Source: a virus
Taxonomy: Duplodnaviria > Caudoviricetes
Strand: one strand, 5' to 3'
DNA: 58,345 bases
IMG/VR virus record: IMGVR_UViG_3300003937_000384
Location: 1-58,345 of that record
Positions 466-15,040 of the stretch are shown one piece after another (position 1 is the first letter of the stretch; each line of letters begins with the position of its first letter). The notes below the pieces were generated by a model. It saw only the letters and a list, made by a program, of their open reading frames with translations. It was not told the DNA's origin and searched no databases. Made by a program: the position numbers and the translations under genes.

Positions 466-1047
466 GTGCGCATTGCATCGGTGATGGTGGTGTTGACCAT
501 TTGGCTTGGAGCGTGTGGTGAGGCCGTGGCGCAGGCCGGTTCAGTTCCGCCCGCCGGAACCAAACAGGGTTGGGAGCGCCAGCATCTGGGCGACCATGTC
601 AGCGAACCCGGCGAGGCTTTACCGGACTTCCTCCGGCGCACCGGGCGAGTGCTTCATGACTACACCCGCCAGAGCGGGAACGAGGCCTGTGGCGCGATTG
701 CCAGCGACGGCCAGCGTTTTTCCCTGCGCCTCTACACAGATGGTGTGCCACACGGCTGTGCCATACGGACCAGCGAGGTGATGGAAGGTTCTGCTTTCAC
801 CGGCGAAACCATCCACAGCCATCCTTGGCAGAAGGTGCTGACGATGACACCGGCCGCCAGGGCGTGGAGCCATTTCTACAAGGACGGCAATGCCGGGGCC
901 CCGACCCTGCGCAACGACGGAGCAGTAGGGTTTAGCAGAGCCGACCGCGCTAACGGAGACGGTTGGCTGATTGCTGGCGGGCAGTTGCTGCATCTGGTCA
1001 ACGGAAAGACCGAGCGCCTTGGCCCGGTCTTCCTCTCCACGGAGTGA
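466..1047 (+). CDS. Exported protein with JAB/MPN-like (DUF4329-like) metal-binding motifs
   Basis: N-terminal signal peptide; NEACGAI ... IHSHP ... FSRAD gives an E / HxH / SxxD pattern. Confidence 0.6.
   Translation: MRIASVMVVLTIWLGACGEAVAQAGSVPPAGTKQGWERQHLGDHVSEPGEALPDFLRRTGRVLHDYTRQSGNEACGAIASDGQRFSLRLYTDGVPHGCAIRTSEVMEGSAFTGETIHSHPWQKVLTMTPAARAWSHFYKDGNAGAPTLRNDGAVGFSRADRANGDGWLIAGGQLLHLVNGKTERLGPVFLSTE
1014..1047 (+). repeat. 34-bp direct repeat, copy 1
   Basis: 31/34 identical to 1203-1236; includes the stop codon of 466..1047. Confidence 0.9.
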
Positions 1048-1248: not shown

Positions 1249-2988
1249 TTACTGGCATTGGAACTCGAAGGCTGACCAGTCCGATGCGCCCACGGTTTGC
1301 CAGTAGAACGCCGAGCCATTCCCGACCACATCACAGGCGCACTCTGTTGGCCAATTGACTGGTCCGGTGCTTGGGGAACCAAATCCAGGCATTGGAGTCA
1401 GTTTCTGTTTAAGTGCGGCGACGCAGGTCCGGCGCTCTGGCGTCAATGTCTGTTCTTGAGGCCTCGCGAGGCCGCCCGAAAACGTCGCGTCATCGTTGGT
1501 ATTAACGCTCTGCGTGCAGTGAAATTGGTCAGCGAGGAACTGCGACACCGAGCAGAACACGCCCCAGCCGTAAAGCCCACCGTCGCCCCAGGAAATCCAC
1601 GATTTTCCGGTGTAGGTCGGATAGGTTCTTGCCGGAGGCGTGCAGGTGTTGGAGGTGGTAACCCAGCCACTGGATGCCGTGTAGGTGCCACTCCAGCTCT
1701 CTGAGGTGCTCGACACCGGGGACCCGGTCGCGGCCGGGCAGGACCAGGACGTGGTGCGCGTGCCGTTCTCAACGCGGTTGCGTTGTTGCCAGTGCTGACC
1801 TGCCTGCCCAGCCGGGCAACCCACGTTCTGGCTCTCTGCTGGCGAGGCGCGCGTGATTGCAACGCTGGTTGGCGGCGCAGACGTGCATGCGGGAGCACAG
1901 ATACTCGCTGCTGCCGGTAACCAGGCTGACCATGGTCCCGTCAGCGCGATTGGGCTTGCGAACGGGTCGGGGCATGAATACGTCGTAGTGCGGGTGCGGG
2001 TCTGCGGAAAAGAAGTGGCGCCACTGATGGTGAGAGTGCCTGAAGGACAAACGCCCGTTTGCGCCGCGCTTTCGCTCAACGGTAATGGCGCTGAGCAGGC
2101 GGGTGTGATGACGGGAGGGACAATAGGAAGAGTGACGGCGGGTGGCGCCGGTGGTGCGGTTGGAATTGGAGGTTGAGCGGCGATTGGCACGCATAACGCC
2201 AGCGGAGACCAGCAAGCAGGAGCAGCTACCGAATTCCAAATAAACGAACACGTTTGACCCGCAGGTGCCGTTCCTGTGGCTGGAGCCGTGGGAGCCGCTC
2301 CGCAGCCAGGAGATGGAGCAGGTGGAGTAACAGCTACGGGCGGTGGCGCCACCACCGGGGCCGGTGGTGGCGGAGCTGATGTTGGAGGGGGCGGTGGCAG
2401 TGCAACGGGTGTGAGAACTTGCGCAGACAGGCCAGTAGCGCCGCCGTAGTATGTGAACGCGAGCCGTGCTGGATTCCTGCATCGTTGAGTCGCGGCCTGG
2501 ATGTCCAATTGGGTCGGACGATGATTATTGCCGCGATTGAAGACCGATGTGTCGTCTATTTTGAGGTCATACATGCCTCCACTCGCCGCAGCAGCTAGCT
2601 TTAGGCACGCACGCGTTGGAACCGCGTGGTAAACAATCTTCAACCCTGCGTTGGGGCGGCCATCAATAGTGGCAGGCTCAAGAATAACGGGTTGCGCCCA
2701 TCGGCTCGTTAGGCCAACGCCAGAGTTCATTGAAACGGGTGGAACGCGGTCGGCAATAGCCTGAGCGGTTGTCAGTCCCGCATAGGAGCCGAGCGCTCCA
2801 TACGTCATGTCTGCATTGCGAGCGATGGTGTGAATATTCGCTTGTTCTGCGCGAACATCTGCGTTGTTTGCCGATGAATGATAGATAGCGAAAGCCGCAC
2901 CGGAAAGAAGTGTCATAGCACTCGCCGTAAACATCAGCTCGATCAATGAGATGCCACGTTGCGGATGTGGGCGGCTTGATGGCTTCAT
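1249..2988 (-). CDS. Type IV prepilin-like protein: PilS-like pilin domain, Pro-rich linker, Cys-rich adhesin-like C-terminus
   Basis: Class III signal QRG|ISLIEL followed by a hydrophobic helix and a pilin head (..VPTRACLKLA..). Then a long PPPP stretch and repeated CPxG..R..SCP..W..W..C units. Confidence 0.75.
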   Translation of the reverse strand: MKPSSRPHPQRGISLIELMFTASAMTLLSGAAFAIYHSSANNADVRAEQANIHTIARNADMTYGALGSYAGLTTAQAIADRVPPVSMNSGVGLTSRWAQPVILEPATIDGRPNAGLKIVYHAVPTRACLKLAAAASGGMYDLKIDDTSVFNRGNNHRPTQLDIQAATQRCRNPARLAFTYYGGATGLSAQVLTPVALPPPPPTSAPPPPAPVVAPPPVAVTPPAPSPGCGAAPTAPATGTAPAGQTCSFIWNSVAAPACWSPLALCVPIAAQPPIPTAPPAPPAVTLPIVPPVITPACSAPLPLSESAAQTGVCPSGTLTISGATSFPQTRTRTTTYSCPDPFASPIALTGPWSAWLPAAASICAPACTSAPPTSVAITRASPAESQNVGCPAGQAGQHWQQRNRVENGTRTTSWSCPAATGSPVSSTSESWSGTYTASSGWVTTSNTCTPPARTYPTYTGKSWISWGDGGLYGWGVFCSVSQFLADQFHCTQSVNTNDDATFSGGLARPQEQTLTPERRTCVAALKQKLTPMPGFGSPSTGPVNWPTECACDVVGNGSAFYWQTVGASDWSAFEFQCQ

Positions 2989-2990
2989 GG

Positions 2991-3320
2991 TTAGCGCTTC
3001 TTTGCGCGGGATGCTTCTCGCTCGGCTAGATGCATTCGCCCGCGCGTGCGCATCTCATTTCGTTGTTGAACGAAGGCCGGCTTTGAGATCTGCTCTCGAT
3101 ACCCAAGTAGTAGGCCAACAAGCTCAGTCTCATCCAGTGAATCAGCCCCAGCGGCGATGACCGCGCCGCCCAGGAGAATCTTGCGGTGCGCGTCTGCTTT
3201 GCGTTCGCTAGCTCTTGTCTTTGCTTTTGATCTTTGCTCGGCCAGCATCTCCCGTGCTTTCAATTTTGCGAGACGCTCAGTAGCGGCGGTGATTTGTTCT
3301 TGTATAGAGCGTGTTGCCAT
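2991..3320 (-). CDS. Mobilization accessory protein (TraD/MobS-like)
   Basis: MATRSIQEQI..ERKADAHRKILLGGAVIA motif; divergent from the relaxase across oriT. Start moved to the ATG at 3320. Confidence 0.75.
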   Translation of the reverse strand: MATRSIQEQITAATERLAKLKAREMLAEQRSKAKTRASERKADAHRKILLGGAVIAAGADSLDETELVGLLLGYREQISKPAFVQQRNEMRTRGRMHLAEREASRAKKR

Positions 3321-3530
3321 TGTTGAGTTCTCGTAATGTCCTACACCTAATGCAAACAGAAAATCGGCTATTGGCAAGTCATCGACTTGTCATATTGCAA
3401 TTCCCTGTCATCCTGAATTAGAGGGGCACAGGCGAGCGAGAGCGAGCCAGCCCCAGCGGGAAACGCGAGCGAAGCGAGCCCCGGTCTCTTGCTCGAAGCC
3501 GTCACGAATAGTGGCGGCAAGGATCAAAGC

Positions 3531-3674: not shown

Positions 3675-5396
3675 ATGGCCATTTATCACGCCACCGTCAA
3701 AGCCTTTTCGCGCGGCAAGGGTCATTCCTCTACTGCCGCTGCGGCGTATCGTGCGGGCATTGTGATTAATGACGAATTGACCGGTATCAAACACGACTAC
3801 ACAAGGCGCAGTGGCGTTGCCTCGGTTGATATGTTGGCCCCGCAAAATGCCCCCGAATGGGCGCGAGATCCGGTCGCCTGTTTCAATCGCTCGGAAATGG
3901 CCGAGACCCGGCTAAACGCCAGGACGGCGCGAGAGCTTGAAGTTGCTCTGCCTGCAGAACTGAACGAAGCGCAGCGTCGTGCGCTCGCGTGCGACTTGGG
4001 TCAGATGTTGGTTGACCGCTATCAGGTTGCGGTGCTTGTTGCAGTCCATGAGCCCGATAAGAAAGGGGATGAGCGCAATCACCATGTGCATCTCCTTATG
4101 ACGCCTCGTCAGATCGGTCCTGATGGCCTGGGTGAACGTGCATGTGCTGAATTTGATGCGCGTGGTGGCGCAGGACCGGAGGCTATCCGCATTCTTCGTG
4201 AGGCGGTGGCTGACCGTATCAATTCGCATCTGGAACGAGCACAGGTCGCTGAACGTGTTGATCATCGCAGCCTAGCTAAGCAAGCACATGCCGCCGAAGC
4301 TGATGGCTATATCGGGTTCGCAGCCATGCTGGCTCGCGAAGCCACCCAGCACGAGGGTAAGGCAGCAACCGCGATGCGTAGGAGGGGTGAAGATAGCGAG
4401 CGGGCCACGGTAAATAACCAGATCCAAAACGCCAATCGCATTGAACTGCGTGACTACCTGGAACGCTTGGAGCAAGAGGGAAGGGTGATGGCGACGCCAC
4501 GCTCCCATACGCAAGAAGCAGCTCAACGTGAGCGGCTTGCAGCTGTTGGCAAAGAAGAGCGGCAACCGCACCTCGGGCAGGTCGCGCTGGCGCCGCCACG
4601 AGCACGAAAAAGGCCAGCATCAGTAGAGCAGCGAGCTGCACGAGTGGGGTCTGCCGCATCGCGCTTTCCGCCAAGTCTCAAGCCAGTATTGATGAAGGCG
4701 GCTAGGCGTCTTCGTAGCAAGATTGCGAACAAGCAAGCAGACGAGGCCATGGCTCGTTACGACGCTGAAATAGAGCAGCTGGAGATGGAAGCGAGACGGG
4801 TTTGGCTGGAGGATATAGATGCTGCCGTTCGGCAAAGTCTTTCGACGGTCGCCAAGCTCTTTGACATGTCGAGCAGGGCGGGCGCCTACCCCCACAGGGC
4901 GTCATATCGAAACGATATGCGCGAGCTTCACAGTTCATTGAAGCAGGTGGCTCGTGACGCCACTCGATGGGAGCGCAGGCTACAAGCCGAAGTTAAGGCA
5001 AACATTTCACTCACGGAAGCCCAAATGAAATTGGTGACATGGGAGAGGAAAAATCCCAAGCCGTCGCTCTGGAGCGGTAGCAGGCGCGATTGGGCGCAGC
5101 GGCGTCGGAGTGGCGAAGAGCGCATTGAGCGGCGCAGGACGCGGCACGATGCTGCGCGTCTAGCTACAGGCCCGGAAGCACAGGTGAAGTATGCGGCGCA
5201 GGCAGCTACGAGTGTAGAAGCTTTGGATAGGCTCGCAGCATCAATGCTGAAGCGCTATCCAATCACTGCTGATACAGCACAGCCGCACAAATCGCAGTGT
5301 TCTGGAACTACCCCAACGCGCACGCTTACGGAACAACTGAACGATAGCGAGTTGGAGAAAAAGGACCAAAGAAGATGTCGCGGACCTCGCGTCTGA
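3675..5396 (+). CDS. mobA: MobA/MobL-family (MOBQ) relaxase
   Basis: MAIYHATVK, AAAAYR (catalytic Tyr), ARELEVALP, and the HUH triad HE..N-HHVHLL. Start at ATG 3675. Confidence 0.92.
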   Translation: MAIYHATVKAFSRGKGHSSTAAAAYRAGIVINDELTGIKHDYTRRSGVASVDMLAPQNAPEWARDPVACFNRSEMAETRLNARTARELEVALPAELNEAQRRALACDLGQMLVDRYQVAVLVAVHEPDKKGDERNHHVHLLMTPRQIGPDGLGERACAEFDARGGAGPEAIRILREAVADRINSHLERAQVAERVDHRSLAKQAHAAEADGYIGFAAMLAREATQHEGKAATAMRRRGEDSERATVNNQIQNANRIELRDYLERLEQEGRVMATPRSHTQEAAQRERLAAVGKEERQPHLGQVALAPPRARKRPASVEQRAARVGSAASRFPPSLKPVLMKAARRLRSKIANKQADEAMARYDAEIEQLEMEARRVWLEDIDAAVRQSLSTVAKLFDMSSRAGAYPHRASYRNDMRELHSSLKQVARDATRWERRLQAEVKANISLTEAQMKLVTWERKNPKPSLWSGSRRDWAQRRRSGEERIERRRTRHDAARLATGPEAQVKYAAQAATSVEALDRLAASMLKRYPITADTAQPHKSQCSGTTPTRTLTEQLNDSELEKKDQRRCRGPRV

Positions 5397-5402
5397 AGCT
5401 AG

Positions 5403-5439
5403 AAAAACAATGCCCCCGAATATTCTTCGGGGGGCATTG
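5403..5439. terminator. Hairpin terminator after mobA (U-tract on the minus strand)
   Basis: CAATGCCCCCGAA / TTCGGGGGGCATTG, preceded by AAAAA. Confidence 0.7.
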
Positions 5440-5470
5440 ACAGAATTGGCGTTGGCCTCATGCTGTTTTT

Positions 5471-6240
5471 TAGCGGCAGCGCGTTGATAACAGCAACGGC
5501 TGCGAGTAGGTAGAAAGCAGCTCTACACACCCAGGCATCGGCCCCAAGCAACAACATAGCCGACATCGGGAAGAGCGCAACCCCTCGCAACCCAGCTGGA
5601 ACCAATGGCTATCGCACGGAGGTCCGATTAGTTCGCGCCCGGTGACAATCCGGGGCTATCCATCTCCTACGGATAGCGGCCTTAAACCGTGGAGGAATAC
5701 GTCCACATCCGGCAGCATGGCTTCTGCGTCGCGGAGGTTCCAAGGCATGGGTTCCCTAGCTGGCCTTGGATTGTGTGCCCCGTCTCGGGTCGGCCATGTA
5801 TGCGAAGGGCAAGATTGGAGAGCGTCAGGCGACAGCCTGATCACGGGGCAAAGCCCATGGGAGAGACGCCAGTGAATGCTGGTGGCAGGACCCCAGCCCC
5901 GGCGCCATGTCAGGCGTGAACCTGCCGCAGCTGTGTATTGACAGTGATCACAGCGCCGACGATGGTCCTCTGCCTAGGCAAGAGTAGGCCGGCCCGGCAA
6001 AGGTCCCCAGGCTCGCTTATTGCGGGTTGGGGGAGACTTTGCCTCGGTCGGTCGGCGGTTAGAAGCAAAGACCGAGGCAAAACAGCGGGCCCATAGTGTC
6101 CTGAGTCAGCAGGAAGATGTGTCCTGAATCGGGGGCGGAGGTGGCCTTGTCCGTAAAGGAGCACTTGGAGTTCTACAGCAGAAAAACGGAGCGGACCGAA
6201 AATTTCCGGGCGCCGACGAATGTTTTAATGTTCGGTCAAA
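5471..6240 (+). ncRNA. Candidate large structured non-coding RNA (boundaries approximate)
   Basis: No convincing ORF; more than 15 helices including nested multiloops; G-U pairs favour the + strand; upstream TTGACA-16-CATGCT (5437-5464). Confidence 0.55.
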
Positions 6241-6246
6241 GGCACA

Positions 6247-6657
6247 TCAGATTTGACCCCAAGGAAGGAAGAAGCGTGGTCCTACCTTTAGGCCGCGAAT
6301 TCGAGCTTGCCAGTCACTGATCTGTTTTATGAAGCTATCGACGGGATGCGCCGAGTGCTTACATGCTGCTATGGAATTTAGAAGCTCATTGCTAACTTGC
6401 ATCAAGGAAATTCCGGCGCCCTTGTGCTTGAGAAGGAAGAGCTCGGATGCTATCAGGTGAAGTTCTTCACTCTTATCTGAACTGATGATCTGTGTGTTAC
6501 TGGCATCGCCCATGTAGTTGATTGATCGAATAGCTCGAAGTGCCTCGTATTTCAGCGCATTGAACTTTGAGAGCTTGGCCATCAGCAAGCCCGAGTAGTA
6601 TCCAGCGGCCGTGCCGGGAATCAATGCCATCAGGAGGTCGTAGGCGAGGCTTGTCAT
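6247..6657 (-). CDS. Hypothetical protein with N-terminal hydrophobic segment
   Basis: Clean ORF, lower GC than its neighbours, downstream of the XRE gene. Confidence 0.65.
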   Translation of the reverse strand: MTSLAYDLLMALIPGTAAGYYSGLLMAKLSKFNALKYEALRAIRSINYMGDASNTQIISSDKSEELHLIASELFLLKHKGAGISLMQVSNELLNSIAACKHSAHPVDSFIKQISDWQARIRGLKVGPRFFLPWGQI

Positions 6658-6719
6658 TAGGGTCTTCCTTGCTGGCACCTAGGCATAGCGTAGGAAGTCG
6701 CTAGGCCGTTCGGTGCGCG

Positions 6720-7079
6720 TCACTTGCTAGCGGGGGCGAGGCTTTTTAGAAGCGCCAGTGCTTCTTTCTGTTTTCGGGCATCAAGCTGTGTCAGCACCAA
6801 GATTGCCTCCGCAACCACGTCAGAGGCAGCAAGGAAGTAAGCGGCTGGGAGATCCAGAAGCTCCGCGAGCTTCTCAATGGTCTCCAGATCAGGCTTATGA
6901 AGGCCCCTCTCATACCTGCTGATGCGGGGCGCAGTGGTGTTTGGGTCATCCACTCCCATCAATAGTTCCCCTAGCTGGGCCTGAGTCCAGCCCTTGGCTG
7001 CGCGTGCGGCGCGGAGGCGTTGGCCAAGAGCAGTGGTTGTTGGTAACGGCGCGGGCATTCGGGGCAGCAAGAAGGGCAT
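6720..7079 (-). CDS. XRE-family HTH transcriptional regulator
   Basis: LGQRLRAARAAKGWTQAQLG..ISRYERGLHKPD. Confidence 0.88.
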   Translation of the reverse strand: MPFLLPRMPAPLPTTTALGQRLRAARAAKGWTQAQLGELLMGVDDPNTTAPRISRYERGLHKPDLETIEKLAELLDLPAAYFLAASDVVAEAILVLTQLDARKQKEALALLKSLAPASK

Positions 7080-7159: not shown

Positions 7160-7639
7160 ATGGATATGAGGTGCTGGGCATTGGTGGGTCTTCTGGCGTT
7201 CACTGCTTCTGCTGACGCTATGCCCAGCCTGTCGTGCCAACTGCAGACTGGCCAGTTCAGGGTGGATGGGGGAGGGCGGCCGAAGGTATCCGCTTTCATT
7301 TGGGCCACGGGTCATGGCTCCGCGATCCCCACCGGCCCCATCCGAACCAGCATCGGCCGCATCGACTCCGTCGAAGGCCGGGACTACAAACGCGCTATCA
7401 AGCTCGATGGAAAGCCGGTTCTGCTGCCTCCCGAAGCGCATAGCGTCATTGGCTTCGGCAAGGTCTATGACTTCAAGGATGCCGTCGCTCTGGTCTATCT
7501 AGGGGAGCGTGAGGAGGACTCCTCTGCGCGGCCTAGTCAGATCGTGATCGTCATCAACAAGGCCGGGTCACTGATTGATAGCGAAGTCCTACCTGGCACT
7601 GCAACGAATCCGGGCAATCACTGCCTACTCATCGACTGA
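7160..7639 (+). CDS. Exported hypothetical protein
   Basis: GAGGAGG RBS; signal peptide ending ..TASADA. Confidence 0.7.
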   Translation: MDMRCWALVGLLAFTASADAMPSLSCQLQTGQFRVDGGGRPKVSAFIWATGHGSAIPTGPIRTSIGRIDSVEGRDYKRAIKLDGKPVLLPPEAHSVIGFGKVYDFKDAVALVYLGEREEDSSARPSQIVIVINKAGSLIDSEVLPGTATNPGNHCLLID

Positions 7640-7649
7640 AGGAACACAC

Positions 7650-7949
7650 ATGAAGAAGCTTTGGACGCTTTCCGCTACTGCGCTGCTGGTTGCTTGCTCG
7701 GGTGGTCCTGGGAGCGGCGATGTTGAGAAAGCCTTGGCCGTGTATTTCAAGGAGGCGACGGGAACGACGATGACGTTTGAGCACTTGAAGGTAGGAGAGT
7801 GCGTGCGTGGGGACAGCCCCGGCTATGCGTGCAGTGTCACCGGAACTGCGCGGTATCAGCTGGGCACTCGCACTGAGCAACAGCAGCTTGTCGGCACTTT
7901 CGTCATCGATAAGGTCGATGGCACTTGGACTGTCGTAGACCGTCGCTGA
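7650..7949 (+). CDS. Lipoprotein
   Basis: MKKLWTLSATALLVA-C lipobox. Confidence 0.75.
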   Translation: MKKLWTLSATALLVACSGGPGSGDVEKALAVYFKEATGTTMTFEHLKVGECVRGDSPGYACSVTGTARYQLGTRTEQQQLVGTFVIDKVDGTWTVVDRR

Positions 7950-7984
7950 CCCAGGTCCTTCCCAACCATCGCTAGGAAGCTCGT

Positions 7985-8521
7985 ATGTGGACCTTGTTCA
8001 AGGTAGTCCGCTGGATCATCACCGGTCTTGCACTTTGGTGGCTGTGCGGTGTGGTGTTCGAAAAGGGCACGACGGCTGAGGGTGCCGTGTTCGGGTTGAT
8101 GCTGTTCGGGCAGCTGGTCTTCTGGCCCCTTGCGCTGCTGTGGGGCTTGCCGTGGCTGTTCCGTCGCCGCGCGCCCAAACTGAAGAAGCATAGGCCTGAA
8201 GAGTTTGAGCCCACTGTTTGCCATGACCATATCGCCTTGGACCTGGGCAGGGACACTATCTGGATCCGGGAGCCCGTGAAGGGCGAGCGCTACCTGCGGC
8301 GGGCTGAAGTGCTCGCCATCCGCACTGGGGAATACAGCTACAAAGGAGTCATCACCCATCGTCTGGAAGTCCAGGTGCGGGACGTTGTTCACCCGCTCTG
8401 GCTGGTTCCTTTCGTGCGCCACTCCGACCGTTGGCTCAAGAGCACAGCTGTCAATGAGACTGAGAGGGATGAATGGTTCGCTAGGATGAAAGCTTGGCTT
8501 ACTGAAACGCGCACCATCTAA
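7985..8521 (+). CDS. Membrane protein (2 N-terminal TM segments)
   Basis: Two hydrophobic stretches followed by a soluble domain. Confidence 0.7.
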   Translation: MWTLFKVVRWIITGLALWWLCGVVFEKGTTAEGAVFGLMLFGQLVFWPLALLWGLPWLFRRRAPKLKKHRPEEFEPTVCHDHIALDLGRDTIWIREPVKGERYLRRAEVLAIRTGEYSYKGVITHRLEVQVRDVVHPLWLVPFVRHSDRWLKSTAVNETERDEWFARMKAWLTETRTI

Positions 8522-8606
8522 GCAGCCCCATTCCAGCGAATGCAGCTAGGCAGGAAAGCAGAGTGGCCCATCCTCCATGCGCGGAATGATGGGCCTATGT
8601 TGCCTC

Positions 8607-8837
8607 TTAGTCTTCGCTTTCCTCAGGCTCCAACTTGCTCAGTTCTCCCAGTCGCAATAAACCGCGCTCGATCATGCTCTGCGCACAAGCAACACAGTAT
8701 CGATCCCAGCCCCGGTCTTTTCGCACCCCTAGTCGAATGTCTCCGCGTTCGATCCTATGTTTACTGTTAGCTTGGCAGTTGTGGGCCTTCTTCGCCCTGT
8801 CTACCATTGTCGAGACGATCAAGGACTTAGTCGCCAT
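8607..8837 (-). CDS. Small Zn-finger-like protein (PARP-type Zn-finger resemblance)
   Basis: RAKKAHNCQANSKHRIERGDIRLG..WDRYCVAC; ATG overlaps the 3' end of the helicase gene. Confidence 0.65.
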   Translation of the reverse strand: MATKSLIVSTMVDRAKKAHNCQANSKHRIERGDIRLGVRKDRGWDRYCVACAQSMIERGLLRLGELSKLEPEESED

Positions 8838-10623
8838 CGAACAGCTTCCTGCAAACGCTTGCTGTAAGGGCATCGAACTGCCCCCGAATGGTGTCCAGTT
8901 CCACCTGTGACATCTCACTTCGTTCCCCTGGCTTCCGGCCGACCAAGGTGTTCGCCGCCTCGTTGAGAGTGGTGACTACCACTACGTAGTTGTCGCGACC
9001 AAGCCGTCTGTGATCCAACTCTCGCCCGCCATGCTTAATTCCTCGCTCATTGAGAATTCGTCCTGCGTGGAGTTGAATAAGCTCGTTAAGAGCGTCTCTG
9101 GCGGCCTGTCGTTTTGCTGCCTTAGGGACAGCGATGGGCTTGAGGGCTTGGGTAGTAGGGTCAAAGTCTGCAGGGATAATTCCGCTCTGCTTCAACAGGC
9201 GAATGGCGTCTTCCTCTTCCTGCTTTAGGAGGTGGATTTCCTGCATTTCCACCTCGGACTGCTCTTTGACCTCGGGCTTCCCATTGGTAGTGTCGCGAGG
9301 CGCATACTCACGGAACTCCGTGGGATCTGCTGGATCCAAGCCTTCAAGAGGAAGAAGCTGGTCAAAGAAGGATTGGTCATCTTCGCTGAACTGCTGGAAG
9401 TCTCCCCACCTGGCGGCAATGTTGCCGCCCGCATGAAAGATCACACTGCCCTGGTTTACAACGTCCCCCGGCGCATCTTGCTTGATTACGCGCATGATTC
9501 GCCCAACGAATTGGACGAATGGAGACAGGTTGGAGAACACGCTAAGGACCGCCGCTACCGACAGGAACGGATGGTCAAAACCTTCGCCAAGTTTTCTCAC
9601 CTGTACGATCACGTCCAGTTGATGATTCGCCAGCCTTTGCATGACTTGGTCATTCTTTTTACTCTCACGGGAATGCACAAAATCGGCCTTCCTTCCCCGT
9701 GCGCGATAAGCCTCCACAATCTGAATGCAATGCTCATAATTCAATGCCGAGGCGATTACCTTTAGGCGTGGCTCCCCTGTCAAGTTACGGAGCCGGTCGA
9801 GCTCCCTGAGGGACGCATCAACAATGGTATTCAGTGTTTCTTCGGACGTTACGATGCTTCTGCGGAAATCCGCGTCCTCCTCACCTAGGCGTCGGACCTC
9901 ATCTAGGGAGACTTCAACCTCCGAATCGCCTGGTCGCCTGACATAGCGTAAGGTCTTCGGATTGAGTTGGATTGCTTTGAGCTGTTTAACATAGCCCGCT
10001 CTGATCGCCTTGAAGATTGGGTATGAGTAAACGACGGGACCGCTCATCATCTGGCCATCAGCTCTAAGAGGCGTGGCGCTGAAGTTCACGACCGAGGCTG
10101 CAGGGAATTTTGCTTTCAGGGCCTCATAGGTTGCTGCAACGCTATGATGGCCCTCGTCGAAAATGATCAGGTCAAAGAAGTCGGCAGGAAGCGTTCGCAA
10201 CCACTTGTTGCCATCGCCGGAAATCTGCTGGATGTTTGTAATGGCAACGTGTGCGGCGTCAAGGTCACTTCGATTTGCATCGGTGCCTCTTATTTCCACT
10301 GGCTCTGGATAATTGGGGCCGTCCATCACATCGCAGCGTGCATAGAATAGCTTCTCGCTACTAAAGTCGAAATCAGCTGCCAGCTGCGTTGCAATCGCAA
10401 CGCCGGGAGCGATGATCAATGCTCGTTTCGATTTATACGCAAATGGAGTGAGCGTTATAGTTCCTGACTTTCCGCATCCCACGGGCAGTACTACGCTAAC
10501 TTCTCTTATGTCCGCACCGTCAGCTACATGCTGTGCTAGCGCCTCATAGGCTCCTTGTTGCGGTTCTCTGACCTTCGGATTTCCAGTAATGCGGGGTGCG
10601 ACATCTTGGAACGGGCTAGACAC
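8827..10623 (-). CDS. SF2 DEAD/DEAH-box helicase (ResIII-like)
   Basis: Q-motif REPQ, Walker A LPVGCGKS, DEGHH, SATP, LGEGFD, and motif VI QFVGRIMR. Confidence 0.9.
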   Translation of the reverse strand: MSSPFQDVAPRITGNPKVREPQQGAYEALAQHVADGADIREVSVVLPVGCGKSGTITLTPFAYKSKRALIIAPGVAIATQLAADFDFSSEKLFYARCDVMDGPNYPEPVEIRGTDANRSDLDAAHVAITNIQQISGDGNKWLRTLPADFFDLIIFDEGHHSVAATYEALKAKFPAASVVNFSATPLRADGQMMSGPVVYSYPIFKAIRAGYVKQLKAIQLNPKTLRYVRRPGDSEVEVSLDEVRRLGEEDADFRRSIVTSEETLNTIVDASLRELDRLRNLTGEPRLKVIASALNYEHCIQIVEAYRARGRKADFVHSRESKKNDQVMQRLANHQLDVIVQVRKLGEGFDHPFLSVAAVLSVFSNLSPFVQFVGRIMRVIKQDAPGDVVNQGSVIFHAGGNIAARWGDFQQFSEDDQSFFDQLLPLEGLDPADPTEFREYAPRDTTNGKPEVKEQSEVEMQEIHLLKQEEEDAIRLLKQSGIIPADFDPTTQALKPIAVPKAAKRQAARDALNELIQLHAGRILNERGIKHGGRELDHRRLGRDNYVVVVTTLNEAANTLVGRKPGERSEMSQVELDTIRGQFDALTASVCRKLFDGD

Positions 10624-11096
10624 GCTTGTTCTCCTGGATACGTATTCTGCTCATGCGAAGTTGGGCGGCGCATTATCTGTGCGCCGTATTGGTCAGCAGC
10701 GGCTGACGTGAGATGTTCATTGCTCGCGCGGGCGTAGATGTCGGCATATTTATTGGTCGTTTTCATCCCGTGCCACAATTATCATCCCGACAGATACATC
10801 TGCCGGGCTTCTTGACGCCTACTGCGAGCTTTTACTTTCCCCCTGAAATTCCCTGGCTGATGCGCCCTTCAGTCATGAGATCCTGCCTCAGGCAACCCAT
10901 CTATTCAATAGTTTGATGTCTGTCACATTTTTGGCGGGGCGCCGCGTGCCTTTCGGCAGGGCCAGACTTGGCAAGACGCGCCGGGACGGGTGGCAAAGCA
11001 GACAGCGAGGCGATAGCAAGAGTCCAGCCCCGAATCTTGGGCACCTGGAGTGGTTGATGGCGTTGCCTAATCATTGTCGCCGCGATCCCCCGGGCG

Positions 11097-12701
11097 CTAC
11101 GACGCCTTCCTCATCCGACTTGCTGGCGTCGTGGAGTGCGCGCTTTTGGCAAGAGCGACCGCTTTTCGTTCACGTGCAGCTGCATTCACCACCCTCCGCT
11201 TCGCTCTGAGTTGCGCTTGCTTGAGAGACTGCGCTGCCTCTCCAGGCTGATAGGCCGGCAGACCTTCGGGAACGGGGAGAAGCGCTACCGCGTCTGCGCG
11301 CGATTGGAGCGTGGGCACATCTACATAGGTTCCGAGCTCGCCGGGCATATGCGCCTTGTGCCCCGTAATGGCAGCGGCAATAGAGCTAAGCACCCCCGCA
11401 TAGAGAAGCCGGGTGCTCGCAGTATGTCGGAACGAGTGGAAGCCCATGCCGGGCTGCATCATGCCCAAGCCAACAAGATAGGCGCGGAACTGATCTCCGA
11501 GGGCGTCCCCGTAGCCTGCCTTCTTATGCCAAGGCAGGTGGGGAAACAGGCGCTCATGGCCCGACTGCGCTACATCTTCGACGTAAGTTAAGAAGCCCGC
11601 CTCCAACAAGCGTGGGTGGAGTGGGATGAAGCGCAAGGAGTTTGCGTTTTTCAGCTTTTGATCCCGCCGCCCCGCACGAATGTGGATTCCCCAAATGCCA
11701 TTCACCTCGGCCACATCGTCGGCATAGAGTTGCCCAAGCTCGTTGACCCGCGCCCCAGTGCCCGCTGCTAGCAGGACTCCCCAGTATCGATCAGGCCGCT
11801 CCTCTGACCAGGGAAGGAACTTCTCCATATCGAAGAGTTGGTTGATTTCCTCAATGCTGAAGGGGCGACGGGGGAGCGTGGCGATTGCGGTGGCCGAGCT
11901 CTGGCGCTTGATTCCATCGAGCGGCGAACGTGTGAGCAGCCCACCGGCTACTTGTGCATTGAGGAAGCTGGCCAGTCGGTCACGATGTTTGCCTAGAGTC
12001 CGATCAGACAGGCCCGCGATAACGAGCCCTTTGGCGCGTTGTTGCTTGACCTTGGCGATGATTTGCGCGGCGCTCAGTTCTTTGTATTCTGCCTTCTTGC
12101 GCGCATTGCTCGGCCAGTCATGAAGCCCATTTAGGAAGGCGCGCACTTGGGTCTCCCCCACTTGCGACATGAGCAGGTCGAGCCCTGCTATTTCGCGGAA
12201 GATGGTGAGCGTGTTTTCACTGTCGAGCAGATTGCCTGGCGATGTCTTAGCGTTCCTAAGGTCTTCCAGGTAGAGACCAACACGCTTTGTCAGGGTGTCC
12301 CCGGCTCCGGGCAGCGGTGAACTTTGGGCAAAGCCTGAGCTCGCGAGTCCCTTGATGGTGTCCAGCAGAGCTTTGGCGTCCTCGCGTCCATTCACCTGTA
12401 GGTCGGTCAATCTCGCGCCGTTAGGCAGCTCAATGTTCCCGGTCCAGCGGTCAATGGTTCCGGCCAACGCTCTCAGCAGGGCGTCCCGATCCTTCTCGGT
12501 CATTGGGCTACGTCTGATGCGGTCGAATGCCTGAGAGAGTGCCACAGCGGCGCTTGCCGCTGTAAGCCGCATCAGATCGATTGAAGCAGGGGGCAGGCGT
12601 CGCACCAGGTAGCGGGAGCCAATAAGAGGCTGTAGATCCGTAGGCACAAAAAAACGGACGTATAGCCCGCTCGGTCGGCGCAGGAAAAATGGCTTTGGCA
12701 C
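11097..12701 (-). CDS. int: Tyrosine integrase with DUF6538-like N-terminus
   Basis: TGARVNE, KLKN, FHSFRH, ITGH and a C-terminal Tyr; N-terminus LYVRFFVPTDLQ. Likely GTG start at 12701. Confidence 0.9.
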   Translation of the reverse strand: MPKPFFLRRPSGLYVRFFVPTDLQPLIGSRYLVRRLPPASIDLMRLTAASAAVALSQAFDRIRRSPMTEKDRDALLRALAGTIDRWTGNIELPNGARLTDLQVNGREDAKALLDTIKGLASSGFAQSSPLPGAGDTLTKRVGLYLEDLRNAKTSPGNLLDSENTLTIFREIAGLDLLMSQVGETQVRAFLNGLHDWPSNARKKAEYKELSAAQIIAKVKQQRAKGLVIAGLSDRTLGKHRDRLASFLNAQVAGGLLTRSPLDGIKRQSSATAIATLPRRPFSIEEINQLFDMEKFLPWSEERPDRYWGVLLAAGTGARVNELGQLYADDVAEVNGIWGIHIRAGRRDQKLKNANSLRFIPLHPRLLEAGFLTYVEDVAQSGHERLFPHLPWHKKAGYGDALGDQFRAYLVGLGMMQPGMGFHSFRHTASTRLLYAGVLSSIAAAITGHKAHMPGELGTYVDVPTLQSRADAVALLPVPEGLPAYQPGEAAQSLKQAQLRAKRRVVNAAARERKAVALAKSAHSTTPASRMRKAS

Positions 12702-12807
12702 GGAGTGATACCTACTTTGATACCTGCAGACAGGCTCAGTTCGTGTATCACTCCGATGCCAAAACCCTTGCAAAATCAGCCACTTAGTGATAGATTTTGC
12801 AAGCAGT

Positions 12808-13161
12808 TGGTGGAGGTGGGCGGAATTGAACCGCCGTCCGAAGGCACTCCATCCCCAGCACTACATGCTTAGCTCACCGTTGGATCTCGTCCCCGAACAG
12901 CACGGTGCGCAAAGCGCATCCGGGAACCAGCCTGTTGTGTTCTAGTGCCGGACTGACAGGCAGCCACCCAGCGCGATTCCATGATAGTGACTCTACACCG
13001 CGAGCATGGACACAAGCGGTTTCGAGGCTTAGGCCTTAAGCGGCCAGAGCGTAGTTGTCGTCGTTGGCAACTAGAGTTTTGCAGCTGGATTTACGAGGAA
13101 AGCTACCCCCTCGGCATGCGCCAGGCGACTTCACAACCCCCGTCGAAACCAATGCACCCCC
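12808..13161 (-). ncRNA. ssrA: tmRNA
   Basis: 5' GGGGGTG pairs with 3' CACCTCC-A-CCA; T-arm present; tag ORF 13036-13068 encodes ANDDNYALAA*. Confidence 0.98.
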
Positions 13162-13358
13162 GGTTTCTTCAAGTATTGCAAGGCTTTTGGGGTCAATGCT
13201 GGCAAAAAGCTGGCACTAACCCTGCCCAACGAGCCGAATAGTACGGCAATCTTCCTGAACAGTCACGCGGCAAGTCATTCCTGTTCATCTTCACTTGCTG
13301 AACAATCGCAGCGTATGCGACGCTCTGGCCGGACGCTTAAGGGGCAAGGAGCTCCGGC

Positions 13359-14192
13359 ATGTCGGTCACGCAATTGCTGGGACCAAGCAGCTACCTGTCT
13401 TACCTTGGTAAGGCGGGTGACGGCTGTGACGCCAACACGCACAAGGCGAGGGTGGAGTTTGAGCCTGGCACGCCAGTCGATGCCTATGTGAAGGTTTATG
13501 ACGAAGGTGACGCGCCCAAGGGTCTCGTCAACGAACTCATCGGCTACGTCTTGGCGAAGCATGCTGACATCGATGTGCCGGTGCGATCCGCGATCATGTT
13601 GTTGTCGAATGCCCAGACGGGCTACCTGCCTGATGGGTTCAGGCCGATGAAGGACGCGAGCGGCAGCGTCGTGGCGTGGTGCGTCGAGGACGTTGGCGGC
13701 AACACTCCAAAGCAGGCCTTTAGATGGAAAGAAGAGCAGGGGCTAGAGGCACTTCGTGATGACCTAAAGAAGTGGCAGAAGCTGGTTGATGTGGTTGCAC
13801 TGGATGCTTGGGTACTCAATGAGGATCGGAATCTCGGAAACCTCGTCCGCATGGCGCCAGGGAAATATGCTGTTATTGATCACGGCCGGGTCTGTACGGG
13901 GAACGCGTGGGCTGTTCCTTTGGATAGAGCTCGGGTGAGTCACACGAATAAGCTGGCTCTCGCCGCTTGGGACTCTCATAACGTCGAGCAGGCCCCTGCG
14001 AAAGTCAGATCCGGAGTTCTCAGCGCATTTGAGGCTCATGCAACCGTTCTCGCCAAGGCGGATCTCGACTTGTTGGAGTGGCTGCCCCGTCTTGTGGAGG
14101 GCCTAGAGGAACAAGACGTGAAGGATTTCCTGCAGCAGCGCGCAACTTCCGTCCCGAAACACTACAAGACAGCATTCCAGGTGCTGCTATGA
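13359..14192 (+). CDS. HipA-like Ser/Thr kinase
   Basis: YVK, NELIGY.LA, catalytic loop NEDRNLGN, IDHG. Confidence 0.82.
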   Translation: MSVTQLLGPSSYLSYLGKAGDGCDANTHKARVEFEPGTPVDAYVKVYDEGDAPKGLVNELIGYVLAKHADIDVPVRSAIMLLSNAQTGYLPDGFRPMKDASGSVVAWCVEDVGGNTPKQAFRWKEEQGLEALRDDLKKWQKLVDVVALDAWVLNEDRNLGNLVRMAPGKYAVIDHGRVCTGNAWAVPLDRARVSHTNKLALAAWDSHNVEQAPAKVRSGVLSAFEAHATVLAKADLDLLEWLPRLVEGLEEQDVKDFLQQRATSVPKHYKTAFQVLL

Positions 14193-15040
14193 ATCTGACA
14201 AGTCTACTCAGGACGTCCAATTCGAGTGCTGGCCAGGCCGTTGAAGGCGTGTGGCAGAACATTCGCTGGCTGCCTGATGCGGCCACAGGTGAAGTATTGA
14301 ACCTTGGCGTCCGGTTCAGGGCAGGCACTGGACAGAGCATAGTGCGCCTGATCGACTCATTCGATAGGGTCAAATGTCTTTATGACGCCAGCGTGGCAAG
14401 CGATGCGGAGTTTCTCGTGAGGGTCGTCGGTGACGCGTTGGCGGCTGGATTCGAGATACCAGCAACTGGCATCTTCCTCAGCGAGGAAAAGTATGCCTCC
14501 GGAACCAACGCCCGTGCAGTTGTCGATGACCTTTTTTTCCGAACCGTTCCGCTGGCCCGCCCGCGCGCGGACGCAGAGCGCGGCGGCAAGGGGCTGAAGA
14601 CGGAGCCGAATGACGCCATCAGAAGTGTCGTCTTTGACGAGCTACGGCGCATCTCAGGACTTCGCGCTGAGTCCATCATCCGCGGGGAGAACCAATTCGA
14701 GGTTAGGGAGCCCGGGAAGACTCACTACCTAGATATTCCACTCCAGTCCAATCGGGCGCTCGGTACGATCGTCTCGGCAAGGTTCGCCAAAAGGAAGGAT
14801 GCCGAGCTAAGGCTCTTGCGCGCAGACAACGATCTGCAGATTGCAAAGCGTGTCTACCAAGGAGATCGGATGCTGATGTACGTGGTTCGACATGATTCAG
14901 GAGCTGCAGCAGCCGAGCGGTTTGATGAGCTGCTGGATGATTTCTCATGGAAATTCAGTAGGGTCGGAGTAGAAATGAAGAGCTACTCTGATCCTCTGCT
15001 GGTTGCCGAAGACGTCGTCACTGATATGTTGGCCGCCTAG
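14189..15040 (+). CDS. DUF3037-like protein
   Basis: IRWLPDAATGEVLNLGV N-terminal motif; ATGA overlap with the kinase stop. Confidence 0.7.
   Translation: MNLTSLLRTSNSSAGQAVEGVWQNIRWLPDAATGEVLNLGVRFRAGTGQSIVRLIDSFDRVKCLYDASVASDAEFLVRVVGDALAAGFEIPATGIFLSEEKYASGTNARAVVDDLFFRTVPLARPRADAERGGKGLKTEPNDAIRSVVFDELRRISGLRAESIIRGENQFEVREPGKTHYLDIPLQSNRALGTIVSARFAKRKDAELRLLRADNDLQIAKRVYQGDRMLMYVVRHDSGAAAAERFDELLDDFSWKFSRVGVEMKSYSDPLLVAEDVVTDMLAA

Follow-up and report, generated by a model that had tools for sequence, protein, structure and literature searches.

What occupies the gap beside a relaxase gene on a bacterial mobile island, where no convincing open reading frame (ORF) is found, and does it act as RNA? 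The question is raised by IMG/VR record IMGVR_UViG_3300003937_000384, filed as a 'provirus' and analyzed here over its whole 58,345 nucleotides (nt; the window), the left 12.8 kb of which are an integrative mobilizable island. An original prediction, made from the letters of the window, described positions 5471-6240 as a dense, multi-domain fold and a candidate new large RNA. Comparison with homologues indicates that the gap very probably holds a real, selected, structured + strand element, and that this element probably acts as a transcript rather than as DNA. With less assurance, we favor a reading in which it is an antisense-controlled effector RNA serving the island, encoded by a self-contained non-coding RNA locus on integrative mobilizable islands. 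The locus is laid out as follows.

Between the relaxase stop (5396) and the 143-aa ORF (6247), + strand: ORF-less gap harboring the RNA
5437 to ~6090, + strand: conserved non-coding module, delimited by homologue comparison
5472-6090, + strand: conserved body of the large structured RNA, ~620 nt in the window, across which homologues align; its 3′ end could reach ~6125
6091-6246, no strand assigned: less conserved tail, possible site of the RNA 3′ end and probable site of the terminator for the 143-aa gene, which is convergent

Fifteen copies of the element were found, five near-identical and ten across four further lineages, all of them in mobile islands of Xanthomonadaceae. Within the near-identical group, identity to the window is 94-96% for three contigs, L002 (from Stenotrophomonas geniculata ATCC 19374, the closest named relative of the window, at 96%), L005 (from the viral collection) and L016 (from a metagenome), and L121/G635 has the same core. 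L011/G142 is 77% identical to the RNA region of the window. In L012/G265 the RNA region keeps ~70% nucleotide identity, while amino-acid identity of the relaxase next to it is 35% and the relaxase is unalignable as DNA; the RNA is thus conserved well above its neighboring proteins. More distant copies were scored with R1, a covariance model of the most conserved 160 nt (window 5799-5958). These form the L060 group, namely L060 itself, a record of Xanthomonas citri pv. malvacearum that BLAST detected from L011 (67 bits with R1), and its Stenotrophomonas relatives L122, L124 and L126; scores in this group are 67-86 bits. A longer form, type B (L061, L062, L123 and L125), has the promoter, 5′ blocks and core signature in common with the others and is missed by R1. 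Type A copies measure ~620-700 nt and type B copies ~900 nt.

The extent of the element was assessed from these alignments. The window is 95.6% and 98.1% identical to two close relatives over 5471-6085, versus 86.4% and 87.3% over 6086-6246, a segment in which close relatives also differ by an 11-nt indel, and the alignment to distant relatives ends near 6085-6100. Thus, of the span 5471-6240 first proposed, the part up to ~6090 is conserved, and the remainder to 6240 falls to 86-87% identity. No + strand terminator was called by a terminator scan of the region.

The gap is indeed bounded as described, with the relaxase ORF stopping at 5396 and a minus-strand ORF of 143 aa having its end at 6247, and the ORFs inside it had been called short and inconsistent. 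This description holds: each of the six frames contains 2-9 stops in each of five homologues. No Pfam family was found above threshold for 12 stop-to-stop frames (best E 0.037 and 0.07) or for the four ORFs of the gap. The invariant blocks lack 3-base periodicity, and indels are not multiples of three. With no open frame and no Pfam family, homology to a decayed protein gene, which the original prediction had named as the finding that would overturn it, was not observed.

Conservation of the fold was measured with RNAalifold on five sequences from three lineages. On the + strand, the consensus energy is -208.06 kcal/mol with a covariation term of -8.24, and 45 of 175 pairs have changed on both sides. 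The minus strand of the same five sequences gives -172.84, a covariation term of +4.8 and 32 of 181 pairs. In the + strand structure, 94.0% of cells are paired, and the 45 double-changed pairs compare with 15.8±3.1 in shuffled alignments (none of 500 as high) and with 4-10 when the partners are slid by 1-3 columns. A nine-sequence, anchor-guided alignment of the full length is noisier, with 62 of 173 pairs double-changed versus 40.4±3.4 (0 of 500 shuffles) and 19-29 when slid. Pairs are therefore kept by compensatory changes beyond both the shuffle and the slid controls, a comparison that the original prediction had left to homologues. On this evidence the + strand is the folded strand, and by comparative prediction the element comprises ~25-30 helices on that strand, of which compensatory changes have rebuilt many, together with a pseudoknotted core and ~ten unpaired blocks that are invariant. 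Its main structural parts are listed below, together with those helices of the original prediction that recur.

5476-5487/5493-5503, + strand: P1, 5′ stem-loop of the comparative fold
5506-5511/5520-5526, + strand: P2, 5′ stem-loop of the comparative fold
5529-5545, + strand: block CCCAGGC-AUC-GGCCCC, with CCCAGGC invariant; single-stranded or in long-range pairing, and inside the sense/antisense overlap
5799-5958, + strand: most conserved core, with the blocks GCGAAGGGC, AAAGCCCA, GAGAGACGCC and GCGUGAAC, five hairpins or helices and the pseudoknot
6000-6079, + strand: 3′ domain, a long hairpin (6000-6016/6022-6039) and a terminal hairpin (6040-6049/6070-6079)
5476-5487/5493-5503; 5638-5642/5650-5654; 5655-5663/5669-5677; 5689-5695/5700-5706; 5715-5722/5792-5799, + strand: recurring helices of the original prediction
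5739-5750/5760-5770; 5825-5830/5835-5840; 5884-5889/5921-5926; 5930-5935/5949-5954; 6000-6016/6022-6039, + strand: further recurring helices of the original prediction

Sequences held out of a model provide a separate view of its structure. R1 scores 146-194 bits on the sequences used to build it and 67-86 bits on the four L060-group sequences that were held out. Across nine sequences, the four held-out ones included, 96.2% of cells in the R1 structure are paired and 14 of 42 pairs are double-changed, versus 8.0±1.4. When the pseudoknot is incorporated, 98.3% of core cells are paired and 18 of 40 pairs are double-changed, versus 9.1±1.6 in shuffles (0 of 500) and 0-7 when slid; this core test included the four sequences held out of R1. 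The pseudoknot is formed by 5858-5861/5892-5895, in which three of four pairs covary, crossing 5885-5889/5921-5925, in which four of five covary. Two candidate helices were discarded. The outer helix of R1 (5801-5809/5921-5929) exhibits no covariation and is 87% paired, and it was replaced by the pseudoknot strand. A long-range helix CCCAGGC/..UGGG from the first global fold likewise exhibits no covariation and is partly contradicted by the covarying 5858-5861/5892-5895.

Outside the core, the sequences of P1 and P2 vary between lineages and the hairpins are kept. At the other end, a perfect 12-nt inverted repeat is present (6038-6049/6070-6081), and L012 and the L060 group form the terminal stem from other letters, as judged by eye.

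Many of the predicted pairs had been noted to be G-U on the + strand, which would be A-C on the minus strand. This strand bias is also seen in the four held-out sequences, where the non-Watson-Crick cells number 18 G-U and 2 A-C. The pairs of the five-sequence fold include 98 G-U and 12 A-C cells, a count that is biased because that fold was predicted on the + strand. Within the core, 48 of 367 cells are G-U in a tally of the pair table, and four pairs are G-U in 8-9 of nine or in five of five sequences.

Not every helix of the original prediction was recovered. Ten of its 14 helices recur in the comparative folds, most of them with compensatory changes, three are unsupported and one is ambiguous. 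In place of 5722-5727/5731-5736 and 5779-5782/5786-5789, a covarying alternative was found (5727-5738/5777-5787), and 6194-6200/6231-6237 falls beyond the conserved part. The ambiguous one is the closing helix 5955-5960/6051-6056, for which the five-sequence fold gives 5955-5958/5995-5998 and the nine-sequence fold 5988-5994/6050-6056. In the recurring hairpin 5655-5677, the loop (5662-5670) of L005 (approximately 7511-7519) resembles the reverse complement of the window loop (ATCTCCTAC versus GTAGGACGC), and the 3′ arm of L005 has two A-to-G changes with pairing kept as U-G. The loop difference looks like a hairpin-loop inversion as far as the two sequences can tell.

Folding of the single sequence was compared with shuffles by minimum free energy (MFE), with 20 shuffles for each strand over the whole of 5471-6240. 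The z-scores are -3.19 (+) and -2.68 (-) for the whole region, -2.51 (+) and -3.12 (-) for its 3′ half, and -0.98 (+) and -0.94 (-) for its 5′ half. The expectation of folding better than shuffles thus holds weakly for the region as a whole, with no strand preference, and the 5′ half comes close to folding no better than they do. Because single-sequence folding is weak and not strand-specific, the case rests on the comparison of homologues.

A promoter at 5437-5464 had been proposed. We observed this motif, followed by a second set of signals on the opposite strand.

5437-5464, + strand: large-RNA promoter, with -35 TTGACA (5437-5442), a 16-nt spacer and -10 CATGCT (5459-5464); predicted start ~5471-5473
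5580-5553, minus strand: convergent promoter, with -35 TTGCGC (5580 to 5575), a 16-nt spacer and -10 TATGTT (5558 to 5553); predicted start ~5546
5433-5403, minus strand: intrinsic terminator, a hairpin (5433 to 5413) followed by CATTGTTTTT; 8 pairs, 6 of them G-C, as called by the scanner
5546-5403, minus strand: predicted antisense RNA of ~140 nt, whose complement takes in the large-RNA promoter and the first ~75 nt of that RNA

The + strand promoter is present in the same relative place in every copy that was scanned. Its TTGACAG is invariant in the five-sequence alignment, the pattern [TC]TGAC[AG]-N16-[TC]AnnnT was found by regular expression in 14 of 14 sequences, 348-482 nt upstream of the core, and CTGACA-16-TACTTT was found by eye in L060. 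On the minus strand, the terminator overlaps or abuts this promoter. By eye, every lineage read has a GC-rich hairpin that is preceded on the + strand by an A-run, and in L012, the L060 group and type B the hairpin encloses the -35 box. It is the predicted 3′ end of an antisense RNA and, judging from its position, would also insulate the module from upstream genes.

Given a minus-strand terminator, a minus-strand promoter was sought and found. Of 15 sequences, 14 have the pattern TTG...-N16-[TC]AnnnT, placed +77 to +81 from the predicted + start and with a 16-nt spacer in every match; the version in L125 is degenerate (TTCCCA-16-TACGCT). An extended -10 'TGn' was read in eight of 11 lineages. 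The letters at key positions of this promoter, A5553, T5557, A5558 and GCAAC (5577-5581), are invariant and belong to an apparently unpaired stretch. The convergent promoter and terminator, both new relative to the original prediction, imply an antisense partner for the large RNA, and from these signals we consider its existence somewhat more probable than its absence. The predicted antisense folds into three stem-loops (MFE -56.0, z -3.32, 0 of 200 shuffles as good), and its overlap with the large RNA takes in P1, P2 and the invariant CCCAGGC..GGCCCC block.

Differences among near-identical copies cluster in the first hairpin. They are 5481 G/T (in L121 and two RNA-library contigs), 5487 A/T and 5491 C/G, and the P1-loop positions 5487 and 5491 account for two of the 11 mismatches between the window and L002 in 5471-6085. 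Such clustering would be expected if the loop sets the specificity of sense and antisense, although the numbers are too small for a test.

The original prediction assigned the element to no recognized family. Using Rfam 15 (4227 models), the whole window yielded at gathering scores a transfer-messenger RNA (tmRNA) and one tRNA, both outside the gap. A search of window 5300-6400 at E<=10 gave one chance-level match (mir-4488, 19.4 bits versus a threshold of 71), and seven relatives searched at E<=1 gave one chance-level match. As a positive control, RNAI (RF00106) was detected in ColE1 (645-749, minus strand) with 73.8 bits. Presumably the library includes GOLLD, ROOL, HEARO, OLE, raiA and group I and group II introns. 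A literature search found no description of this RNA, with subscription journals and preprint supplements outside its view. The idea of a large multi-domain RNA on an integrative mobilizable element is thus supported by conservation, covariation, strand bias, a promoter, and the lack of a coding signal and of an Rfam match. We rate it as a new RNA class, of kinds that are already known: ornate RNAs of mobile DNA and antisense-controlled modules.

Several known systems resemble it in part. Like ROOL and GOLLD, large ornate bacterial RNAs (see bioRxiv 10.1101/2024.12.08.627333), the element spans several hundred nt without an ORF, has many helices and conserved junctions, and lies on mobile DNA with no assigned function. 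It differs in having no Rfam match, in its Xanthomonadaceae hosts, in its residence on integrative mobilizable islands instead of phages, and in its predicted cis-antisense. The layout of ColE1 RNA II/RNA I is also similar: a long structured sense RNA, a three-stem-loop antisense of ~100-140 nt over its 5′ end, an intrinsic terminator, a mobilizable carrier and, in some lineages here, a small protein gene downstream. By prediction this sense/antisense layout is found throughout the family, with the + promoter in 15 of 15 copies, the minus promoter in 14 of 15 and the terminator at 5433-5403. However, RNAI (RF00106) is absent from the window and the seven relatives, seven family members compared with ColE1 by blastn gave a best E of 0.082 over 13-23 nt, R1 scores <=6.6 bits on ColE1, the small protein lacks a Rop domain (two of six scanned), and the element is chromosomal and integrated. 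Because there is no RNAI match, no ColE1 similarity and no Rop domain, membership of the ColE1 family is excluded.

The marine RNA-based (MRB) origin of Vibrionaceae is described in PMC3035462 as an ORF-less region of 488-700 bp with an inverted repeat flanked by A- and T-runs, transcribed on both strands into RNA I of ~70 nt (~68) and RNA II of 250-500 nt. The window likewise has an ORF-less region of ~500-700 bp with an inverted repeat flanked by A- and T-runs, and a short and a long RNA on opposite strands, which are here predicted. Further likenesses to MRB are the confinement to one bacterial family and the variation of related copies in small stretches. MRB modules are plasmid origins by experiment, with an RNA I of ~68 nt, whereas the window module is known from sequence and likened to them by that description.

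How might the locus work? The sigma-70-type promoter at 5437-5464 would transcribe the element rightward from ~5472, and the convergent promoter (5580-5553) would fire leftward from ~5546, yielding a transcript that ends at the hairpin and T-run of 5433-5403. The resulting ~140-nt antisense would meet the nascent 5′ stem-loops, probably loop to loop, and this contact would divert the folding of the large RNA or mark it for decay. The amount of correctly folded large RNA could in this way track the dosage of the island. The folded RNA would then be the effector, acting as RNA and in some lineages perhaps with the small basic protein whose gene comes directly after it. As its job we pick the island itself, that is, maintenance or replication-type control of the excised form, and not the host.

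Several observations weigh against this reading. The folding energy of the single sequence beats shuffles modestly and without preference for the + strand. The covariation comes from ~6 independent lineages, and the shuffles ignore relatedness. Structures were predicted from the same or overlapping alignments, and the nine-sequence alignment (A9) was fitted to the model, both of which lean towards structure. Long-range helices of the full model are unreliable, one being contradicted, and full-length folds of 9-10 sequences lose several helices to misalignment. The -10 of the + promoter is weak (3 of 6 letters), and the consensus scanner called neither promoter; it skipped the + promoter because of that 3/6 second hexamer. 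The letters of the minus promoter could instead be conserved for the RNA's own fold. Transcription data point neither way: 18 sequencing runs contain the stretch, eight of them on record as RNA, yet the two RNA-seq contig sets each cover the full 1.9 kb with one contig (2.4 and 12.7 kb), a result that DNA or read-through could produce, and two raw-read runs of the same species label had no reads and are uninformative on a transcript. The proposed effector role is without direct support.

Among other explanations, the layout of the locus most readily calls to mind a Rep-less, RNA-primed replication origin of the excised island, similar to those of ColE1 or MRB, in which the long RNA forms a lasting hybrid near its 3′ end and is processed to a primer while the antisense regulates copy number and incompatibility. 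We regard this as possible but doubtful. An ORF-less module of ~700-900 bp with a long sense RNA and a short, three-stem-loop antisense over its 5′ end fits such an origin, as does the inverted repeat flanked by A- and T-runs, in the manner of the MRB ori (PMC3035462). So do 5′ stem-loops that vary between lineages around a constant core, runs of G towards the 3′ end (L060 group, type B and window 6139-6149), the lack of a recognized rep gene among the island proteins scanned, the small protein gene 3′ of the RNA in five lineages, and the presence of the module on a 7.2-kb island (L011) that has no relaxase. However, among 72,556 plasmid records the family is found in one dubious record (NZ_CP023158.1), the other copies being chromosomal, and neither an RNAI match nor ColE1 similarity was detected. 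The small protein is not Rop-like (no Pfam family in the two scanned), and the terminator lies upstream of the sense promoter and not, as in ColE1, just inside the sense RNA. The many invariant junction blocks and the pseudoknot exceed the apparent needs of a primer, and 40 islands with related relaxases lack the module. If the explanation nonetheless held, which we consider doubtful, the module would be a third independently evolved family of Rep-less RNA-primed origins after ColE1 and MRB, and the first on integrative islands.

The remaining explanations are less probable still. The element could be a long structured mRNA leader for a small basic protein, in one version a type I toxin-antitoxin system like hok/sok whose antisense controls translation or stability. 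In five lineages an ORF of 40-67 aa with a ribosome-site region does follow the RNA on the same strand, and a long folded RNA with a short antisense is the type I design. Yet this ORF is missing in five of 11 lineages. The window type is one that lacks it, and there the RNA is still 95.6-98.1% conserved against 86-87% in its flank. In L012 the ORF comes before the promoter of the RNA. The protein, being hydrophilic and basic, does not resemble most type I toxins, and the antisense target is 600-900 nt away from the ORF; on balance, a leader is improbable. The fold might alternatively act in single-stranded DNA, as a single-strand origin, a primosome site or a single-stranded-DNA promoter after conjugative transfer or rolling-circle replication. 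The carrier is indeed a mobilizable island with a MobA/MobL relaxase, folding is strand-specific in the consensus folds, and DNA tolerates G-T pairs. Like ssoA-type and Frpo single-strand origins and single-stranded-DNA promoters, the element pairs a strand-specific fold with a transferable carrier. Folded into 25-30 helices with a pseudoknot and unpaired blocks that are invariant, its ~620 nt are nevertheless much larger and more branched than known single-strand origins of ~150-300 nt. Moreover, G-U cells are frequent and conserved (48 of 367 in the core), both promoters are ordinary, duplex-type linear arrangements of -35, N16 and -10 and not of the hairpin-stem type, and the module also occurs on an island without a relaxase, all of which makes a role in single-stranded DNA very improbable. 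A decayed protein gene or neutral spacer, with the structure an artefact of GC-rich sequence and relatedness, would agree with MFE z-scores that are weak and similar on both strands, and with shuffle controls that do not keep relatedness. It is hard to reconcile with ~70% nucleotide identity beside a relaxase at 35% amino-acid identity that is unalignable as DNA, or with the lack of 3-base periodicity, the indels that are not multiples of three, the stops in all frames and the lack of a Pfam match. Slid-partner controls, in which relatedness is kept, give 0-10 covarying pairs versus the 18-45 observed, and the sequences held out of the model follow its structure. Decay or drift is therefore highly improbable, and an antisense-controlled effector RNA is the explanation that we prefer.

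It is rare to find a large bacterial RNA that is intricately folded and has no known role, and new biology has followed from every such class. The present element adds a class from Proteobacteria that is resident on integrative mobilizable islands. A pseudoknot supported by covariation and many invariant junctions are a hallmark of RNAs that bind or catalyze, and the apparent built-in antisense regulator offers a direct experimental handle. If the RNA did prime replication, it would show how an island without a rep gene multiplies once excised: a pseudoknotted primer of ~650 nt with a ~140-nt antisense copy-number regulator would make the chromosomal island a facultative plasmid after excision. 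If there is no priming, the element is an ornate RNA of a new kind, possibly partnered by the small basic protein encoded next to it.

The small basic protein is found next to the RNA in six of 11 lineages. It is Lys/Arg-rich, 40-67 aa in length, and has the motif RRAAxxAAxKLL and a conserved ribosome-site region. In five lineages (L060, L124/L128, L061/L132, L123/L130 and L125/L131) the ORF is 3′ of the RNA on the same strand, and in L012 it is 5′ of the RNA, upstream of the RNA's promoter. It is missing from the window type, L011, L122, L126 and L062. Of the six proteins, two were scanned, with no Pfam family at E<=0.1 and no Rop domain. The arrangement differs from hok/sok, which it resembles in its long folded RNA, short antisense and, in some lineages, a small ORF on the strand of the long RNA; here the ORF is far 3′, its product is basic and not hydrophobic, and in five of 11 lineages it is missing while the RNA is still conserved. 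The family may be a partner of the RNA.

L012 7234-7437; L060 2916-3104; L128 ~8374; L132 ~8590; also L130 and L131: ORF of the small basic protein

The carrier first proposed for the RNA, an integrative mobilizable element, is borne out by the island of the window, with PilS-like and TraD-like proteins, a MobA/MobL relaxase, the RNA and an integrase beside tmRNA.

1249-2988, minus strand: PilS-N-domain protein
2991-3377, minus strand: TraD-like protein
3489 or 3675 to 5396, + strand: MobA/MobL relaxase (E 4.5e-44)
6247-6678, minus strand: 143-aa ORF, no Pfam family
6720-7079, minus strand: helix-turn-helix (HTH) regulator
8827-10623, minus strand: ResIII/helicase protein
11097-12773, minus strand: tyrosine integrase, adjoining the tmRNA
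12808-13161: tmRNA gene (Rfam match)

A second integrase-like ORF, shortened and with an Arm-DNA-binding domain, lies at 1-447 on the minus strand, a hint that islands stand in tandem at the tmRNA site.

In 11 of 14 loci examined, the RNA is downstream of and co-directional with a MobA/MobL relaxase, from which it is separated by 0-3.5 kb of variable cargo. An integrase homologue converges on the RNA from 0.4-5.3 kb downstream in nine loci. No recognized rep gene was found among the island proteins scanned. Related relaxases are present in 57 of 400 family genomes sampled, and the possibility that the RNA is their fixed companion was rejected: its signature is absent from 40 loci, covering <=9 kb downstream of related relaxases (two of them shortened by contig ends). 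R1 found no match in 29 loci near ~50%-identical relaxases, loci that are too short for a firm negative. In the loci compared, the module is thus an accessory on islands and not a fixture.

The distribution of the family was assessed in samples of genomes, and the negatives hold for the genomes searched. A search signature (AGCC-N3-5-GAGAGACGC-N45-70-GTGAA) matches eight of 147 Stenotrophomonas species genomes, all eight being family members, and the reversed-pattern control gave none. In a sample of 380 other Gammaproteobacteria genomes it has three matches, none with another family motif, and in the viral collection 40 loci match, one of which is real. BLAST with two queries identified five carriers in a 400-genome family sample (G001, G142, G265, G384 and G345), and R1 identified G001 only in a 151-genome sample of the order. 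No further copies were obtained by BLAST in 22 genomes from the genus of G265 or in 89 from that of G142; three matches of 22-48 nt were taken as chance, as were G331 (30 nt) and 15 of 18 matches of 21-39 nt from further BLAST searches, on which R1 scores <=22.9 bits. The 21-mer AAAGCCCAnGnGAGAGACGCC occurs at eight loci in metagenome contigs, one being a homologue (L016) and seven having the motif alone, and among viral contigs in the L005 contig only. The family is therefore narrow, comprising those eight Stenotrophomonas species genomes and a few other Xanthomonadaceae, which gives it limited reach but makes it tractable.

Plasmid and phage collections were also searched. BLAST of the window sequence against phage and plasmid collections gave no match. 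Four family queries against 72,556 plasmid records identified one record, NZ_CP023158.1 (L175), with no match in Vibrionaceae; the remaining copies are all in chromosomal contigs of up to 5 Mb. NZ_CP023158.1 is filed as a complete circular plasmid of 26.4 kb. No ORF in it exceeds 447 aa, no replicon type is assigned, and it carries two frameshifted integrases as well as pieces of metabolic and autotransporter genes. Either its assembly is poor or it captures an excised island in circular form, and, given its short broken ORFs and two frameshifted integrases, it was set aside as evidence for a plasmid origin.

Several smaller features were seen around the RNA. Two motifs lie in its less conserved tail.

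6176-6194: tail motif CAGCAGAAAAACGGAGCGG, common to some relatives by eye (L011, L124, L126 and L005)
6196-6209: A/T palindrome CCGAAAATTTCCGG, seen by eye in L011, L124, L126 and L005

In L011, L124 and L126 both are located 100-150 nt beyond the last conserved hairpin, and the stretch could be a protein site or a shared terminator.

On the upstream side, L005 (5342-7240) and L002 (5680-7513) contain 1.9 kb of inserted sequence, placed exactly where the relaxase stop gives way to the terminator hairpin (window 5340-5389). It encodes proteins of 303 aa and 163 aa (the latter with a Gly-run), neither with a Pfam family. From these alignments the junction upstream of the module looks like a hot spot for cargo insertion.

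L011 carries the RNA without a relaxase, ~225 nt from the end of a 7.2-kb island. This island (7609-14828) is flanked by an 18-nt direct repeat of the 3′ end of tRNA-Asp, and its genes are an integrase, an HTH regulator, a transglutaminase-like protein, a small ORF called RHS-like by eye only, a membrane protein and the RNA. A transglutaminase-like and RHS-like pair is also found downstream of the RNA in L012.

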